Shown here piece after piece: positions 7,211-35,093 of a DNA stretch of 45,520 nt; position 1 is the first letter of the stretch; each line of letters starts with the position of its first letter. Origin of the DNA: Candidatus Methylomirabilota bacterium (GTDB lineage Bacteria > Methylomirabilota > Methylomirabilia > Rokubacteriales > CSP1-6); contig JBKPAK010000178.1 of assembly GCA_046726415.1 (NCBI GenBank), forward strand, positions 1-45,520, read 5' to 3'. The position numbers and the translations under genes are program-made. The notes under the pieces are model-generated. The model was not told the DNA's origin, did not search any database, and worked only from the letters and a program-made list of their open reading frames with translations.

Positions 7211-7681
7211 CTAGGTCGCCCGGAGTCGCGCTATCATGTCGAGGACGCGGAGGATTTCCGTGCCGTCGCGCACCATGTGGCGGTCGCCCCCCTGGCCCCA
7301 GCGCAGCACCCCATCGCGGTCGACGACGAAGGTCGACCGCCACGCCACGTTCCGCGCTTCGTCGAGGACGCCGTAGGTGCGGATCGCGCTGCGGTGGATG
7401 TCGCTCAGCAGTGGGAAGGGGTAGCCCTCTCTCTTGGCGTAATTGGCGTGTGAGAAAGGACTATCGGCGCTGATGGCGAGGATGGCCGCGCCGCGTTGCC
7501 GGATGTCAGGGTCGACCTTGACCAGGCCGGCGAGCTCCGGCGTTCAGATGCTGCCCCAGTCGTAACAGTAGAACACGAGCACCACGTCCTGTCCCCGCAA
7601 GGCCGACAGGGTGACGTCGCCTCCCGAAGTGGACGGCAGGGTGAAGTCCGGCGCGGGCTGACCGAAGCGCAAGCCACTCAT
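7211..7681 (-). CDS. AhpC/TSA-family peroxiredoxin with in-frame TGA (7546-7544) at the peroxidatic position; probable selenoprotein, 156 aa
   Basis: MSGLRFGQPAPDFTLPST..VVLVFYCYDWGSI-[TGA]-TPELAGL..ILAISADSPFSH..YPFPLLSD..YGV..AWRSTFVVDRDGVLRW..TAG 7213-7211; both halves are in the same frame; ATGA overlap with the upstream gene. Confidence 0.85.
7511..7531 (-). promoter_or_regulatory. Putative bacterial SECIS hairpin of the peroxiredoxin gene
   Basis: mRNA 13-33 nt after UGA reads GCC-GGCCU-GGUCA-AGGUC-GAC; 5-6 bp stem with one G-U pair, apical loop starting GG about 21 nt after UGA. Confidence 0.55.
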
Positions 7682-8547
7682 CGATGTGCCCTCCACCATT
7701 CGCAGATCTCCTCGCCGGTGGTGAACCATACGCCCTTCTTCTTGCGCATGTAGTCGTACACCGCTTCGAAATACTTGATCCGATGCGGCACGCCCGAAAT
7801 ATAGGGATGGACCGCGATGGCCATGACGCGGGGGTTCACCGCCCCCTCTGCATACAGGCGGTCGAACTGGTCCCGGCAGCGCTGAACCCAGAGGTCGGAC
7901 CTATGGTGCTGGATGACCATCACCGGGATGTCGTTCAGCTCTAGGGTGTAGGGGACCGATACCAGGGGGCCGGCGGTGGTGCGGATCTCGTAGGGCTGAT
8001 CGTCGTTGACCCAGTCGGACACGTACTCGATGCCCTCTTCGGCGAGGTAGTCCAGCGTTTCCCACGTTTCGGTGAGGCCGGGACCCAACCAGCCCTTGGG
8101 GCCCTTACCGGTGAACTTCCGGATGAGCTCGATCGACTGGCGTATGGCGGCGCGCTGGTCGGGCAAAAGATGAAGGGCGCCTTGAATGACACCGTGGCCC
8201 ATGAACTCCCAGCCCGCGTCGAGCATGGCGCGGGCCACGGGCTCATAGCTCTCACACACCTGAGCGTTGATCGAGGTCGTGGCCCGGAGCTTTCGCGTCC
8301 GCAGCGCCTCCAGGAGTCGCCAAAATCCCACCCGCATGCCGTACTCGTGCCAGGCCCAGTTCGGCACGTCCGGTACCGTCGACACGCCCTGTGGCGCCGT
8401 CAGGTACTGACGAGCCATGGGTTGGTGAATGTCCCACTCCTCGACATTCACGATGGTCCAGACGGCGATTCGTGCGCCTTTGGGGAGCTTCCATGGGCGC
8501 CGGCTGACGATGGGAGAGTAGTCGAAGCGCTCCGCAGGCAGCTTCAC
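7678..8547 (-). CDS. Polysaccharide deacetylase (CE4) family, PuuE/allantoinase-like
   Basis: VNVEEW, HEYGMRVGFWR, WEFMGHG, GWLGPGLTE, AVHPYISG; GTG start at 8547 after SD AAGGAGG (the longer ORF extension is spurious). Confidence 0.88.
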   Translation of the reverse strand: MKLPAERFDYSPIVSRRPWKLPKGARIAVWTIVNVEEWDIHQPMARQYLTAPQGVSTVPDVPNWAWHEYGMRVGFWRLLEALRTRKLRATTSINAQVCESYEPVARAMLDAGWEFMGHGVIQGALHLLPDQRAAIRQSIELIRKFTGKGPKGWLGPGLTETWETLDYLAEEGIEYVSDWVNDDQPYEIRTTAGPLVSVPYTLELNDIPVMVIQHHRSDLWVQRCRDQFDRLYAEGAVNPRVMAIAVHPYISGVPHRIKYFEAVYDYMRKKKGVWFTTGEEICEWWRAHR

Positions 8548-8639
8548 GGTAGCCCTCCTTGGCGAAGTCTCCCGCACTATACGGCATGTCAGGCCCGCGG
8601 GGAGCGTCGAAGCCAACCGAGCTTGTGGCACCGGGTCGA

Positions 8640-9836
8640 TCAGGGAATCGGCATACTGACCTCGACGACTTCGGAGTCGTCCTCGATCGCCGCTGCGTCG
8701 TAGCCGCCCAGGGCCACCGGGACGAGGGCCGATTCGCCCCGGCCGAGCGTGGTGGAACCGGGATCGACCACGATGGCACCGCTGAGGACGTGTAGGCTGC
8801 GGACGCCTCGGCTGGACGGTCGGGAGACGCGGGCCCCGCGGTGTAGGCGCAGGTGCACGGCGGCAAAGGCTCGGCATTCGACCGAACGCAGGATGCCGGG
8901 ACCGATCGGTTGCGGGACGGCAAAGAAGCTCGCCGGGTCTCGGCGCCGCCCATCGATGGTGGCGAGCGCGCGCTCGATGTGGAGCGGCCGGGGCGGGATG
9001 CGGGCGTGGTCCCACATGCGGAAGGTGGGACCGGTCCGGCGGATCTCGAAGAGCAGGATCCCCCGTCCTTCGGGATTGCCGAGCGCGTGAACGTCGGCGG
9101 AGCTCCCGTCGGACGTAGCGTTGAGGACGACCTGACCGGGCGCGACGGGAATTTCGTTGAGTGCGTCGAGCGCGAGCCGGTGGCCCCTCGCCAGCTTGCG
9201 GAGAAGCGATTCTACTTTCGACGCCCGCCGGGGCGCGATGTCGCGAGCCAATGCCGCGGCGCTCCCCCCCGGCGTGGCCAGCCATGGTCGTAGCCGCGTT
9301 TGCAATTGGGCCGTGTCCGGAACCAGCGCCAGCAATCCCTCGAGGGCCAGCCGCCCTGCAAGGTGCTGCGCCCCAAGATCGCCGAGGTCCACGTCGCGCC
9401 GAAACCCGAGTCGAATCGTCGCGCCAGGCTCGGCCCGGATGATGACGTAGGCCTCCGGGTGACCGGGCGGATGTGTCTGAACTGACAACATCTCCCTCAC
9501 GTCGAGGAACTTCGGTAGAAGGGGAATTCGCGGTCCCCACGCCGTCGCGTGCTTGCCTCCGAGGATCGCCTCCGGCGCGGCGCGGAGTAGATCGACCAGC
9601 GAAACCTCGCTTCCGTCGGGCATCACCACCACGCTCGGGCGCGCGGCCGTCTCGGGATCCCCAGGGTCCGCCGCCACCTCGAACGACTCCCCGTAGCGCT
9701 TTCCTGGCGGCGGTTGTCCGAGGCGCTTGAAGTCAAAGAGGCTGACGCCACCCCATGGACGCTCGACCAGGTTGTCCGGCCGCAGGCGCAGAATGCCACG
9801 GGGGACGTCGGCCCTTACGGCGACCGATGCTCCCAT
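8640..9836 (-). CDS. Type I phosphomannose-isomerase-like cupin protein
   Basis: ERPWGG, YGESFE, LLPKFLD..LSVQTHP, VHALG..LFEI motifs. Confidence 0.7.
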   Translation of the reverse strand: MGASVAVRADVPRGILRLRPDNLVERPWGGVSLFDFKRLGQPPPGKRYGESFEVAADPGDPETAARPSVVVMPDGSEVSLVDLLRAAPEAILGGKHATAWGPRIPLLPKFLDVREMLSVQTHPPGHPEAYVIIRAEPGATIRLGFRRDVDLGDLGAQHLAGRLALEGLLALVPDTAQLQTRLRPWLATPGGSAAALARDIAPRRASKVESLLRKLARGHRLALDALNEIPVAPGQVVLNATSDGSSADVHALGNPEGRGILLFEIRRTGPTFRMWDHARIPPRPLHIERALATIDGRRRDPASFFAVPQPIGPGILRSVECRAFAAVHLRLHRGARVSRPSSRGVRSLHVLSGAIVVDPGSTTLGRGESALVPVALGGYDAAAIEDDSEVVEVSMPIP

Positions 9837-9871
9837 CGGAAGTCCAAGTCAGTGGTTCCCAGTGAGGACGA

Positions 9872-34349: not shown

Positions 34350-35093
34350 ATGAAGCCAGTCGTCTACTACAAGCCCGGCTGAAGCTCCTGCGCCAAGACG
34401 AAAGAGTTGCTTTCGTCATGGGGCCTCTCCTTCGACGGGGTCGATCTCGAGCGGTCGCCCGAGCGCTGGGGCGATCTCACGCAGCGCGGGATTCCGAGCT
34501 ATCCCGCCACGATCCTGGGCGAGCGCGCGGTTCATGGATGGAACCCCGCGGCCCTGGCCGAGCTGGTGGGCGTCACCTACGATGCGGCAAAGCGCTTCAG
34601 CGCCCCGGAGCTGGCCGAAAAGCTCGACGCCATCCTGGCCGCCAATCAGCGCGTGCTGCGGCAGATCCCGCCGAGCCAGCTTGGGATGCGACACCCGCTA
34701 CGAGATCGGAGCGTGCGGGATCTCGGATTCCATATCTTCCGCTTGAGCCAGGCCTTCCGCGACTGCCGGGAGCAGGAGCGCTTTCCGGAAACGTGGCTGC
34801 GCGAGGGAGCGCCGACGGAGATGCACGACGGAGAGGCGGTGGCCCAGTATGGCCAGGCGGTGCGCGATCGGCTGGCCCAGTGGTACCTCCGGCCCGCCTG
34901 GTGTGACGGCATCGTGCATACCTACTACGGGTCTCACCCGGCGTTCGAGCTGATGGAGCGGACCACCTGGCACGCCGCTCAGCACCTGCGCCAGATGTAC
35001 TGGTTCCTCGATCAGCTGGGCATTGTCCCCCATGGAAAGCTCACCGATGCGGATCTCGCCGGGCTGCCATTCCCGACGGAGGTGTGGTCGTGA
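34350..35093 (+). CDS. Glutaredoxin-like (UxxC) domain fused to a DinB-like four-helix domain; probable selenoprotein, 247 aa
   Basis: ATG 34350 MKPVVYYKPG-[TGA 34380-34382]-SSCAKTKELLSSWG, in frame with the 228-aa ORF; cis-Pro loop GIPSYP; DinB histidines RSVRDLGFH and WHAAQH. Confidence 0.85.
34384..34424 (+). promoter_or_regulatory. Putative bacterial SECIS hairpin
   Basis: Perfect 8-bp stem GACGAAAG (34397-34404)/CTTTCGTC (34410-34417), loop AGTTG starting 23 nt after UGA with G second; possible lower stem GCTCC/GGGGC. Confidence 0.7.

Follow-up and report, generated by a model that had tools for sequence, protein, structure and literature searches.

A probable selenoprotein family of peroxiredoxin fold with C-x3-G-x2-U in place of the P-x3-T/S-x2-C motif

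The window (the whole 45.5-kb stretch of DNA analysed here) carries a gene of peroxiredoxin fold that almost certainly decodes an in-frame UGA as selenocysteine (Sec). A site composed of P-x3-T/S-x2-C and an arginine is regarded as essentially universal in peroxiredoxin enzymology. In this gene and its relatives, the motif reads C-x3-G-x2-U. The family, misannotated in public databases, is a genuine one and adds to the known Sec-peroxiredoxins a variant with a new active site. A first-pass annotation of the window had proposed a probable selenoprotein with this rewired site, and both parts of the proposal were borne out. The selenoprotein assignment is carried by the conserved TGA, the conservation of both its flanks, a covarying SECIS-type hairpin and the use of TGA as an ordinary stop in the same family. 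The motif exchange is carried by the Pfam match, the alignment to AhpE, a structural model, Foldseek and all members of the family. No prior description of the family was found in the literature searched, a body of work that has many journals outside its coverage.

The gene and its read-through frame

The features of the locus are collected in Table 1. Under translation table 11, the open reading frame 7729..7544 on the minus strand stops after ...FYCYDWGSI at the TGA, exactly where the first-pass annotation had placed its end. Translation with TGA read as U gives a protein of 156 residues with one U, at codon 46, and with the conserved arginine in WRSTFVVD (residues 114–121), which reproduces the complete AhpC/TSA-type sequence that had been claimed. 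Homologues share the start of the protein, MTG/MSG..RFGQPAPDF. Cys39 is the sole cysteine of the window protein, as had been observed, but this does not extend to the family: 60 of 81 members have a second cysteine at position 77, where the others have Ser (20) or Val (1).

Table 1. Features of the peroxiredoxin-fold gene and its surroundings, in window coordinates
Feature	Position	Strand	Remarks
AhpE-like AhpC/TSA gene, predicted selenoprotein	7211..7681	-	156 codons plus TAG stop, complete
Start ATG	7681-7679	-	read from sequence
TAG stop	7213-7211	-	ends the read-through frame
ATGA overlap	7678..7681	-	peroxiredoxin ATG (7681-7679) over the TGA stop (7680-7678) of the deacetylase-like gene
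GGAGG	7694-7690	-	8 nt ahead of the peroxiredoxin ATG
In-frame TGA, codon 46, predicted selenocysteine	7544..7546	-	lies in the peroxidatic Cys column of peroxiredoxins
Cys39 codon TGT	7565..7567	-	motif Pro position (AhpE Pro38)
Gly43 codon GGC	7553..7555	-	motif Thr/Ser position (AhpE Thr42)
Arg115 codon CGG	7337..7339	-	active-site Arg (AhpE Arg116) retained
SECIS-type hairpin CGGCCU/AGGUCG	7513..7529	-	stem nt 18-23/29-34 from the U of UGA
Apical loop GGUCA	7523-7519	-	20 nt between UGA and loop
Polysaccharide-deacetylase-like gene	7678..8562	-	upstream, translationally coupled; Pfam Polysacc_deac_1 9.7e-8

Recoding of the UGA at codon 46

The family was analysed as a set of 81 sequences, comprising the window gene and 80 related genome loci (out of 106 relatives in genome contigs). 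The loci come mostly from Rokubacteria/Methylomirabilota MAGs, representing uncultured soil and groundwater bacteria. Codon 46 is TGA in 81/81 sequences while the flanking codons vary synonymously, and the protein is conserved among homologues on both sides of it. Homologues without Cys or Sec at this column had been named as grounds for rejecting the selenoprotein; when the column was inspected, 80/80 related loci carried TGA. A sequencing error, another concern raised, is excluded because the same TGA occurs in 80 independent assemblies. Nor has TGA been reassigned, since 43 of the 81 family genes end in TGA (the remainder in TAG, 19, and TAA, 19).

Public annotations present the family as pieces of ~45 to 110 residues or give the UGA as Trp. 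Among the best 120 database matches, 112 are C-terminal fragments cut at the TGA, and the annotated starts of such downstream fragments vary from protein to protein. Ten N-terminal database pieces terminate exactly at ...G.I, and there is no dedicated NCBIfam model for the family. Because the gene is cut into fragments or its UGA is translated as Trp, the family is invisible to routine annotation; a family model combined with a SECIS pattern would mend many Rokubacteria/Methylomirabilota entries. Splitting or shortening by gene callers, and the rendering of TGA as W by some pipelines, could also be taken to mean that the gene is not real, whether through sequencing error, as a pseudogene or split gene, or through a genetic code in which TGA specifies an ordinary amino acid. 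This explanation is effectively refuted by the identical TGA in independent assemblies, by the conservation of both halves as protein, by the inconsistency of the callers' start positions and by the many genes that use TGA as their own stop. The W (code-4-style) read-through entries run through this second TGA into unrelated sequence.

The first-pass annotation had also described a hairpin with a GGUCA loop past the UGA. It lies at window positions 7529-7513, which are nt 18–34 with the U of UGA as nt 1, and its core, starting ~15 nt past the UGA, folds with −9.1 kcal/mol. Folding of the window sequence alone gave a z of −1.67 over 50 nt, with 15/200 shuffles equally good (not significant), and a z of +0.38 over 70 nt, no better than shuffles. 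As single-sequence folding failed to separate the hairpin from shuffles, the case for it rests on the comparison of 81 sequences. Across these, 92.2% of cells are paired (0/500 shuffles as high) and the covariation score is 0.256 vs 0.139 in shuffles (0/500 reaching it), while slid controls pair merely 19–46% of cells. Pair 20:32 is AU in 38 sequences, GC in 26 and GU in 13, and unpaired in 0; pair 24:28 is GC in 46, CG in 19 and other in 12. One compensatory change falls in the Leu53 codon, where the third position alternates synonymously between CUG and CUC in step with the base that opens codon 55 (GC 46, CG 19). The combinations D..V (39), G..A (28), G..V (13) and D..A (0), of 80, likewise speak for a SECIS element. 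All 81 sequences have a loop of 3–9 nt with G in the first two loop positions, a stem of ≥4 bp, a distance of 16–37 nt from the UGA and an MFE of ≤ −7.5 kcal/mol, the properties by which the available text of PMC13188914 defines a bSECIS. Together, these data strongly support hairpin-directed recoding of UGA codon 46 as selenocysteine by SelB/tRNA-Sec, giving one 156-residue protein.

Could the recoded residue be cysteine, delivered by a SelB-dependent Cys tRNA in at least some lineages? The SECIS evidence is silent on the amino acid delivered, and tRNAs of the selC*/tRNA-ReC type are reported in the available text of PMC13582414. We consider this very improbable. TGC and TGT lie one base from TGA and would be expected in some of the 81 species-level lineages, but neither occurs there, and the window contains 0 tRNAs. 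Likewise, no Cys-for-Sec member appeared among the listed matches of the whole-protein, representative and N-terminal-region searches. The suggested conservation of a C-x6-U/C pattern thus stands for its selenocysteine form, C-x6-U being present in all 81 sequences, and not for its cysteine form. A database protein that seemed to provide one through a "C-G-C" pattern, P0155, was rejected as a misaligned 344-aa CxxC protein. Counting against the selenocysteine reading, two further database proteins, P0009 and P0179, show Leu in that column.

Cys homologues are numerous in most selenoprotein families; that these searches found none here points to a family unusually strict in its need for Sec.

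A Sec-using host is plausible. Methylomirabilota have recently been reported to have very large selenoproteomes. The available text of PMC13188914 gives a prediction of 63 selenoprotein genes for one MAG of the phylum, and that of PMC13582414 lists the phylum among those with Sec-type hydrogenases. Another redox gene in the window also contains a TGA; it encodes a Grx-DinB fusion with UxxC, and its hairpin reaches a z of −3.1. Against this, selA, selB, selC and selD were absent from the 45.5-kb window (tRNA search with ARAGORN, scan of 32 large ORFs), and Rfam at gathering thresholds had no match in it.

Fold and active site of the family

Residues 7–128 of the read-through protein match Pfam AhpC-TSA (PF00578) with an E-value of 5e-37 and 127 bits vs a cutoff of 26. 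The AF2 model (pLDDT 93.9, pTM 0.91) superposes on Mycobacterium tuberculosis AhpE and human Prx2 with a TM of ~0.9, and Foldseek matches it to Prx2, Prx1 and AhpE (TMq 0.88–0.92, E ~1e-16). AhpE is the top PDB sequence match (2e-21) and, among structures of matching length, also the best by superposition (TMq 0.88, TMt 0.89–0.90, r.m.s.d. 1.5–1.6 Å, 38% identity), with Prx1 and Prx2 scoring as well by structure. A peroxiredoxin fold is therefore strongly supported; the nearest subfamily may be that of the 1-Cys peroxiredoxin AhpE. In a quick tree the family forms a clade among AhpE-like and other canonical neighbours, where deep support is weak; its stem branch measures 1.26 changes per column and is followed by tight conservation.

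M. tuberculosis AhpE (Rv2238c) has the size of the window protein and the same active-site Arg and Glu. Its Pro38, Thr42, Cys45 and Pro135 correspond to Cys39, Gly43, Sec46 and Arg134, and it has no internal resolving residue. Alignment to AhpE and 15 canonical (near-)full-length neighbours places Cys39 at the motif Pro, Gly43 at the Thr/Ser, U46 at the peroxidatic Cys and Arg115 at the conserved Arg. The model helix 46–62 begins at residue 46. It is thus strongly supported that Sec46 lies exactly at the peroxidatic Cys site, at the N-terminus of helix α2, and that Arg115 and Glu49 have been kept.

These substitutions are fixed in the family. Cys39 is found in 81/81 members (codons TGC 69, TGT 12) and Gly43 in 81/81, with all four Gly codons in use; Pro48, too, is encoded by four codons across the set. 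Glu49 is present in 81/81 members and Arg115 in 81/81 members as well as 34/34 canonical neighbours. A probable second active-site arginine, Arg138, also occurs in 65% of the canonical neighbours. The neighbours (n=34) have Cys at the U46 column in 34/34 cases, Pro at the Pro position in 31/34 and Cys there in 0/34; at the Thr/Ser position, Ser is commonest (23/34) and Gly occurs in 0/34. Full-length neighbours, at ≤46% identity, retain the canonical Pro and Ser/Thr motif throughout. Among 385 database proteins examined, none outside the family has Cys at the Pro position, save the misaligned P0155. Residue 44 is variable (S/G/R/N/T) and so cannot replace the missing Thr.

Beyond the motif, Gln130 and Arg134 are family-specific invariant residues near the active site, and Asn111 is invariant within the family. 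The equivalent of AhpE Pro135, Arg134 in all 42 family rows examined, is a third change from the canonical site besides those of Pro and Thr/Ser.

Known selenoproteins share parts of this arrangement. PrxU of Eubacterium acidaminophilum (also listed as 'Prx, TxxU / PxxxTxxU' and as NF040737) is an AhpC/TSA protein with Sec at the peroxidatic position, and in proteins of this type the UGA is likewise followed by a SECIS hairpin in the coding region, according to the available text of PMC13188914 and PMC2398784. PrxU-type proteins, however, keep P-x3-T-x2-U, where this family has C-x3-G-x2-U in 81/81 members, and the window protein scores 73 bits against the NF040737 equivalog cutoff of 270. A GOS table in the available part of PMC2398784 puts the number of Cys homologues of the Prx family at 7,348, in contrast to the present clade, for which our searches found no Cys form. 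Prx-like 1-3, SelL-related proteins and Prx-SUH (NF045827) are thioredoxin-fold selenoproteins that also have a Cys partner near Sec. The available text of PMC2398784 and PMC13188914 treats the Prx-like/Trx-like selenoproteins (UxxC, UGC, CxxU) as computational predictions, mostly of unknown function. Their Sec and Cys are spaced by two residues at the helix N-terminus, whereas here the Cys precedes the Sec by seven residues and occupies the Pro position in the loop ahead of the helix. The window protein reaches 28 bits against SelL_rel_redox (cutoff 120). NF045827, the Prx-SUH thiol peroxidase, was not among the 14 NCBIfam families found at E ≤0.01, and its CxxU differs from C-x3-G-x2-U.

Candidate chemistry and genomic context

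The reading we favour, held as a whole with slightly less than even confidence, is that of a hydroperoxide reductase with Sec46 as the peroxidatic residue and Cys39 as a resolving thiol inside the pocket. The protein would have remained a hydroperoxide reductase in which the Sec46 selenolate attacks ROOH and becomes a selenenic acid, the intrinsic reactivity of selenium making the missing Thr/Ser hydroxyl dispensable. Cys39, in place of the motif Pro, would condense with the selenenic acid to an intramolecular selenenylsulfide in the pocket, for whose formation Gly43 may give the loop its freedom. A thioredoxin- or glutaredoxin-type partner would then reduce the Se–S bond.

In atypical 2-Cys peroxiredoxins (PrxQ/BCP, Tpx and Prx5 types) and Cys-resolving glutathione peroxidases, the peroxidatic residue, once oxidised, is resolved by another residue of the same molecule, and the cycle proposed here would follow the same logic. 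The known resolving cysteines are located in helix α2, α3 or α5 or in the C-terminal arm and need local unfolding; none is known to sit within the pocket in place of the motif Pro. If true, in-pocket selenenylsulfide resolution would constitute a cycle not described for any peroxiredoxin. In the available text of PMC7231847, MtAhpE Pro38 is close to the reactive centre, and the peroxiredoxin Thr can be exchanged for Ser, not for any residue without a hydroxyl. Thr being intolerant of such residues, Gly43 counts against ordinary peroxiredoxin chemistry.

The same intolerance would fit a genuine selenoprotein of peroxiredoxin fold that is no longer a peroxidase, the alternative that the first-pass annotation had set beside a local selenenylsulfide. 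Its C-x6-U redox centre might then serve in a thiol-disulfide oxidoreductase that works through a selenenylsulfide, or reduce some different oxidised substrate, with the loss of Pro and Thr/Ser and the gain of Cys39, Arg134, Gln130 and further residues peculiar to the family as marks of a new redox job. The replacement of two defining peroxiredoxin residues throughout the family, the arginine at the AhpE Pro135 position and the long stem branch followed by tight conservation in the quick tree are all compatible with a change of function. Moreover, the available text of PMC2398784 and PMC13188914 already lists Prx-like selenoprotein families with redox motifs and unknown function. Against such a change, the peroxidatic position, Arg115, Glu49 and probably Arg138 have been kept, which amounts to the core of a peroxide-activating site, and the 80 loci show no conserved gene neighbour indicating another pathway. 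On balance, we see the loss of peroxidase activity as possible, though not probable.

We think it unlikely that the enzyme is instead an AhpE-like 1-Cys Sec peroxidase in which Cys39 has a structural or tuning role. Resolution would then fall to an external thiol, either that of a glutaredoxin-/mycoredoxin-like protein or one of low molecular weight, or to Cys77 in the majority of the family. The nearest solved relative, AhpE, is a 1-Cys enzyme, JGI calls several read-through forms 'mycoredoxin-dependent peroxiredoxin', and Cys77 is widespread in the family. Cys39, however, is invariant under synonymous codon turnover where Cys77 is dispensable, and, the misaligned P0155 aside, a Cys at the Pro position was seen in no protein outside the family among the 385 database proteins examined.

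In those members that have it, Cys77 could be the resolving residue, which counts against this role for Cys39.

A bolder version of the favoured in-pocket mechanism, which we regard as possible, though not probable, sees the family as a selenium-obligate peroxiredoxin lineage. Two of four "universal" residues would have been lost, Sec would replace the Thr hydroxyl, Cys39 would resolve in a closed pocket without local unfolding, and Gln130, Arg134 and Asn111 might form a proton relay like that of glutathione peroxidases. In any case, the family is a natural experiment in which Pro and Thr were removed and sulfur was exchanged for selenium, with the outcome kept unchanged in at least 80 species-level genomes. 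It could be used to test the catalytic share of Thr, selenium as its substitute and a resolving residue inside the pocket.

The flanks of the gene in the window, with the deacetylase-like gene upstream and an AMP-ligase gene convergent downstream, recur only in loci L003 and L006. The deacetylase-like gene is found in 3/80 loci, adjacent and upstream only in these two and elsewhere in L057; it is context and not conserved with the family. An association with a carboxymuconolactone decarboxylase (AhpD-like fold), apparent in 38/80 loci, was rejected: direct BLAST finds it in 5/80. The larger figure was an artefact, since single-linkage clustering had joined ORFs via antisense ORFs over the peroxiredoxin gene. 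DUF58 (19 loci) and aldo-keto-reductase (17 loci) neighbours look like subclade synteny.

Recoding of the in-frame UGA

Translation through the in-frame TGA yields one continuous peroxiredoxin gene, preceded by GGAGG 8 nt ahead of its ATG (Table). As the first-pass annotation, correct in every coordinate and description, had stated, the ORF track ends with FYCYDWGSI at this TGA, and read-through gives a 156-residue product containing U46, a WRSTFVVD strand with Arg115 and a single Cys (Cys39), which takes the position of the usual Pro. The overlapping upstream gene is part of a 620-residue table-11 ORF (7678-9540, minus strand), of which the last ~294 residues alone look genuine, with polysaccharide deacetylase/GH57-like matches. 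Its N-terminal two-thirds are Arg/Pro-rich and overlapped by a high-GC3 frame (8640-9848) without a match in a Pfam search.

Table. Coordinates of the features discussed
Feature	Position	Strand	Remark
Peroxiredoxin gene	ATG 7681-7679 to TAG 7213-7211	minus	frame broken once, by TGA
In-frame TGA, codon 46	7546-7544	minus	sole interruption of the frame
Table-11 N-terminal ORF ending ...FYCYDWGSI	7729..7544	minus	from ORF list; small pieces downstream
ATGA overlap of peroxiredoxin ATG with TGA stop of upstream polysaccharide-deacetylase-like gene	7681-7678	minus	
Position 77 codon (Ser in the window)	7453-7451	minus	compared across family loci L001-L080
Second candidate selenoprotein gene, glutaredoxin-DinB fusion	34350..35093	plus	TGA 34380-34382

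The GGUCA-loop hairpin previously noted after the UGA is present: counting from the U of UGA, CGGCCU (nt 18-23) pairs with AGGUCG (nt 29-34). Folding of the window sequence alone was unimpressive against shuffles (z -1.67 for 50 nt, +0.38 for 70 nt); the case for the hairpin is instead made by a gap-free alignment of 81 sequences, comprising the window gene and 80 related genome loci. The 8-bp helix was paired in 92.2% of cells, versus 85.1% in shuffles, with a covariation score of 0.256 versus 0.139 (0 of 500 shuffles as high in either case), and slid controls paired in 19-46% of cells, no more. Pair 20:32 occurs as A-U (38), G-C (26) or G-U (13) and is never unpaired, which in protein terms corresponds to D..V 39, G..A 28, G..V 13 and D..A 0 (n = 80). 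Pair 24:28 is G-C in 46 sequences, C-G in 19 and other in 12; as column 24 falls on the third, synonymous position of the Leu53 codon, this covariation is not attributable to protein constraints. The Fig. 2 legend of PMC13188914 describes bacterial SECIS elements as having a loop of 3-9 nt with G in its first two positions, a stem of at least 4 bp, a distance of 16-37 nt from the UGA and a minimum free energy of -7.5 kcal/mol or lower. All 81 hairpins agree with this consensus, at a spacing of 20 or 21 nt and a median energy of -12.6 kcal/mol.

The 80 loci are the best of 106 relatives from a genome-contig scan with the family alignment. The reading of this TGA as Sec is supported by these homologues: codon 46 is TGA in all 80 loci examined, hence in 81/81 sequences, and F[YF]C[YF].[WF]G.I-TGA-[TS]PE occurs in 80/80 (74 by strict pattern, 6 by inspected translation). 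Cys39 is encoded by TGC in 69 sequences and TGT in 12, and four codons occur at Gly43, as at Pro48. Against this conservation, a sequencing artefact or pseudogene has a negligible probability. The genes' own stop codons are TGA (43), TAG (19) and TAA (19), which signifies that these genomes use TGA as a normal stop and that the internal TGA is read context-specifically. That a special tRNA reads this UGA as Cys is very improbable. Together, the data strongly support that one protein is made, with UGA46 recoded under SECIS direction.

Fold and rewired active site

Residues 7-128 match AhpC-TSA (Pfam, 5e-37, 127 bits versus a cutoff of 26) and also Redoxin. No NCBIfam equivalog was reached; the top model was the Sec-peroxiredoxin PrxU, where 73 bits fall short of the cutoff at 270. 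The SelL-related, WAxxUGC and deiodinase-related models scored far under cutoff, and Prx-SUH (NF045827) gave no match. The closest solved structure by sequence is the M. tuberculosis 1-Cys peroxiredoxin AhpE (2e-21), whose FFPLAFTGIC aligns with FYCYDWGSI(U), so that Pro38, Thr42, Cys45 and Arg116 of AhpE correspond to Cys39, Gly43, Sec46 and Arg115. An AlphaFold2 model (76-row alignment; pLDDT 93.9, pTM 0.91), in which residue 46 opens helix 46-62, was matched by Foldseek to human Prx2 (TMq 0.92), hookworm Prx1 and AhpE (TMq 0.88, TMt 0.89-0.90, r.m.s.d. 1.5-1.6 Å, 38% identity). A peroxiredoxin fold is thus strongly supported.

Sec-peroxiredoxins have been described with a conserved PxxxTxxU motif (PMC13188914) and are entered as 'Prx, TxxU' in PMC2398784. 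In contrast, all 81 members of the window clade carry Cys for Pro and Gly for Thr/Ser, extending to the family what had been proposed for the window protein; the residue after Gly43 is variable. As Sec-peroxiredoxins and many peroxiredoxin-like selenoproteins are already known, the kind is not new. Excerpts of the literature searched, including PMC13188914, PMC2398784, PMC12013277 and PMC1794560, yielded no description of a C-x3-G-x2-U site, nor of such a clade's phylum restriction or apparent lack of Cys forms, and none of the terms sought in PMC13326102 occurs there.

We compared 42 family rows with 34 rows of canonical peroxiredoxins. Cys39 is invariant in the family, versus Pro in 31/34 canonical rows; further family-specific invariants include Gly43, Pro48, Gln130, Gly132 and Met136. 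Arg134 is likewise invariant, in a column that aligns with AhpE Pro135 and has Pro as its most frequent residue in canonical rows. The peroxidatic position, Glu49, Arg115 and Arg138 are kept from the canonical site. In a quick maximum-likelihood tree, the 42 rows are set apart from the canonical Cys peroxiredoxins around them by one branch with a length of 1.26 changes per column (SH-aLRT 100).

Proposed catalytic mechanism

Sec at the peroxidatic position, with Arg and Glu retained, is strongly supported. In AhpE, Pro38 lies close to the reactive centre, and the Thr can be replaced by Ser but by no hydroxyl-free residue (PMC7231847). We propose that the protein would still be a peroxide reductase, its selenolate needing no Thr; that Cys39, where Pro touches the reactive centre, would make an intramolecular selenenylsulfide; and that a thioredoxin- or glutaredoxin-type partner would then reduce the Se-S bond. 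As a whole, this mechanism is a serious possibility that falls a little short of probable. An altered redox function, other than that of a peroxidase, appears rather unlikely.

A second, family-specific Cys (Cys77) is present in 60/81 sequences, where model helix 75-85 begins, in the context DSPF-C-H; the window and 19 others have Ser, one has Val, and aligned canonical neighbours have Ser or Ala. Cys77 could be a further redox partner or an alternative one. A 1-Cys-type cycle, with resolution by something other than the invariant Cys39, is unlikely, more so than loss of peroxidase function.

Distribution, database appearance and genomic context

A whole-protein search returned 1874 proteins at E <=1e-10 among 2133 candidates. 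Among the 120 matches listed, 112 hold the post-TGA part only, as fragments 89-108 residues long (67-86% identity); the other eight are full length, seven with W and one with L at the Sec column. Five of the seven W forms continue through a second W beyond the normal C-terminus into unrelated sequence, the pattern that gene calling with TGA as Trp yields. In the JGI proteins P0002-P0008, TGA is translated as Trp at the Sec site, with spurious C-terminal extensions of up to 75 residues beyond the true TGA stop, and several bear the name 'mycoredoxin-dependent peroxiredoxin'. NCBI-sourced entries are ~100-residue fragments called 'redoxin domain-containing protein'. Two database proteins, P0009 and P0179, have Leu at the Sec column, either a source translation artefact or a real TGA-to-TTA change; L044, L049 and L070, loci of the same subclade, have TGA there, and the similarity of P0179 to the family fades after ~residue 80.

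In an exhaustive search of 50%-identity representatives, all matches above 60% identity were fragments (C-terminal, or N-terminal ending at the TGA), full-length matches reached at most 46%, and 15/15 canonical proteins aligned carried FYP.D[WF][ST]..C-type motifs. Residues 1-62 gave 420 matches. Of the 120 listed, 6 are W forms, 10 end exactly ...G.I and 104 have a canonical site (100 with Pro/Thr/Cys, 4 with Pro/Ser/Cys); no family form carrying Cys at position 46 was among them.

The best 80 of 106 relatives are labelled Rokubacteria/Rokuibacteriota/Methylomirabilota (67), unclassified (4) or other (9). The genes of these nine nest within the Rokubacteria/Methylomirabilota clade on short branches, and mis-binning seems more likely than transfer; one label, an archaeon, is probably a binning error. 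That locus is L071 (Nitrosocosmicus); L048, L070 and L079 are among the others labelled outside the phylum. Among these 80 loci and the database matches listed, the C-x3-G-x2-U clade is apparently restricted to Methylomirabilota and without Cys forms.

No tRNA or Rfam match occurs in the window, and its 32 large ORFs that were scanned include no sel gene. Its glutaredoxin-DinB gene (PF00462, 9.6e-8; DinB_2, 4.7e-4) is probably a further selenoprotein gene, presumably the one counted first in the first-pass annotation. It has a UxxC motif, YYKPG-U-SSC, TGA also as its own stop, and a strong hairpin (GACGAAAG/CUUUCGUC, loop AGUUG ~22 nt after the UGA, -23.1 kcal/mol, z -3.1). For the phylum, 63 selenoproteins were predicted in a Methylomirabilota MAG (PMC13188914), and Methylomirabilota are among the phyla with Sec-type hydrogenases (PMC13582414). 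Given this second TGA redox gene and the phylum literature, a Sec-using host is plausible.

No conserved neighbour of the peroxiredoxin family was found across the 80 loci, and the window's own flanking genes recur in L003 and L006 only. A carboxymuconolactone-decarboxylase link at 38/80 loci was rejected as a clustering artefact, caused by antisense ORFs entering single-linkage clustering; the true count is 5/80. In these five (L007, L008, L012, L019 and L028), which all belong to one subclade, the decarboxylase gene (PF02627, 2.3e-15; no CxxC motif) adjoins the peroxiredoxin gene on the opposite strand, within ~0.6 kb.
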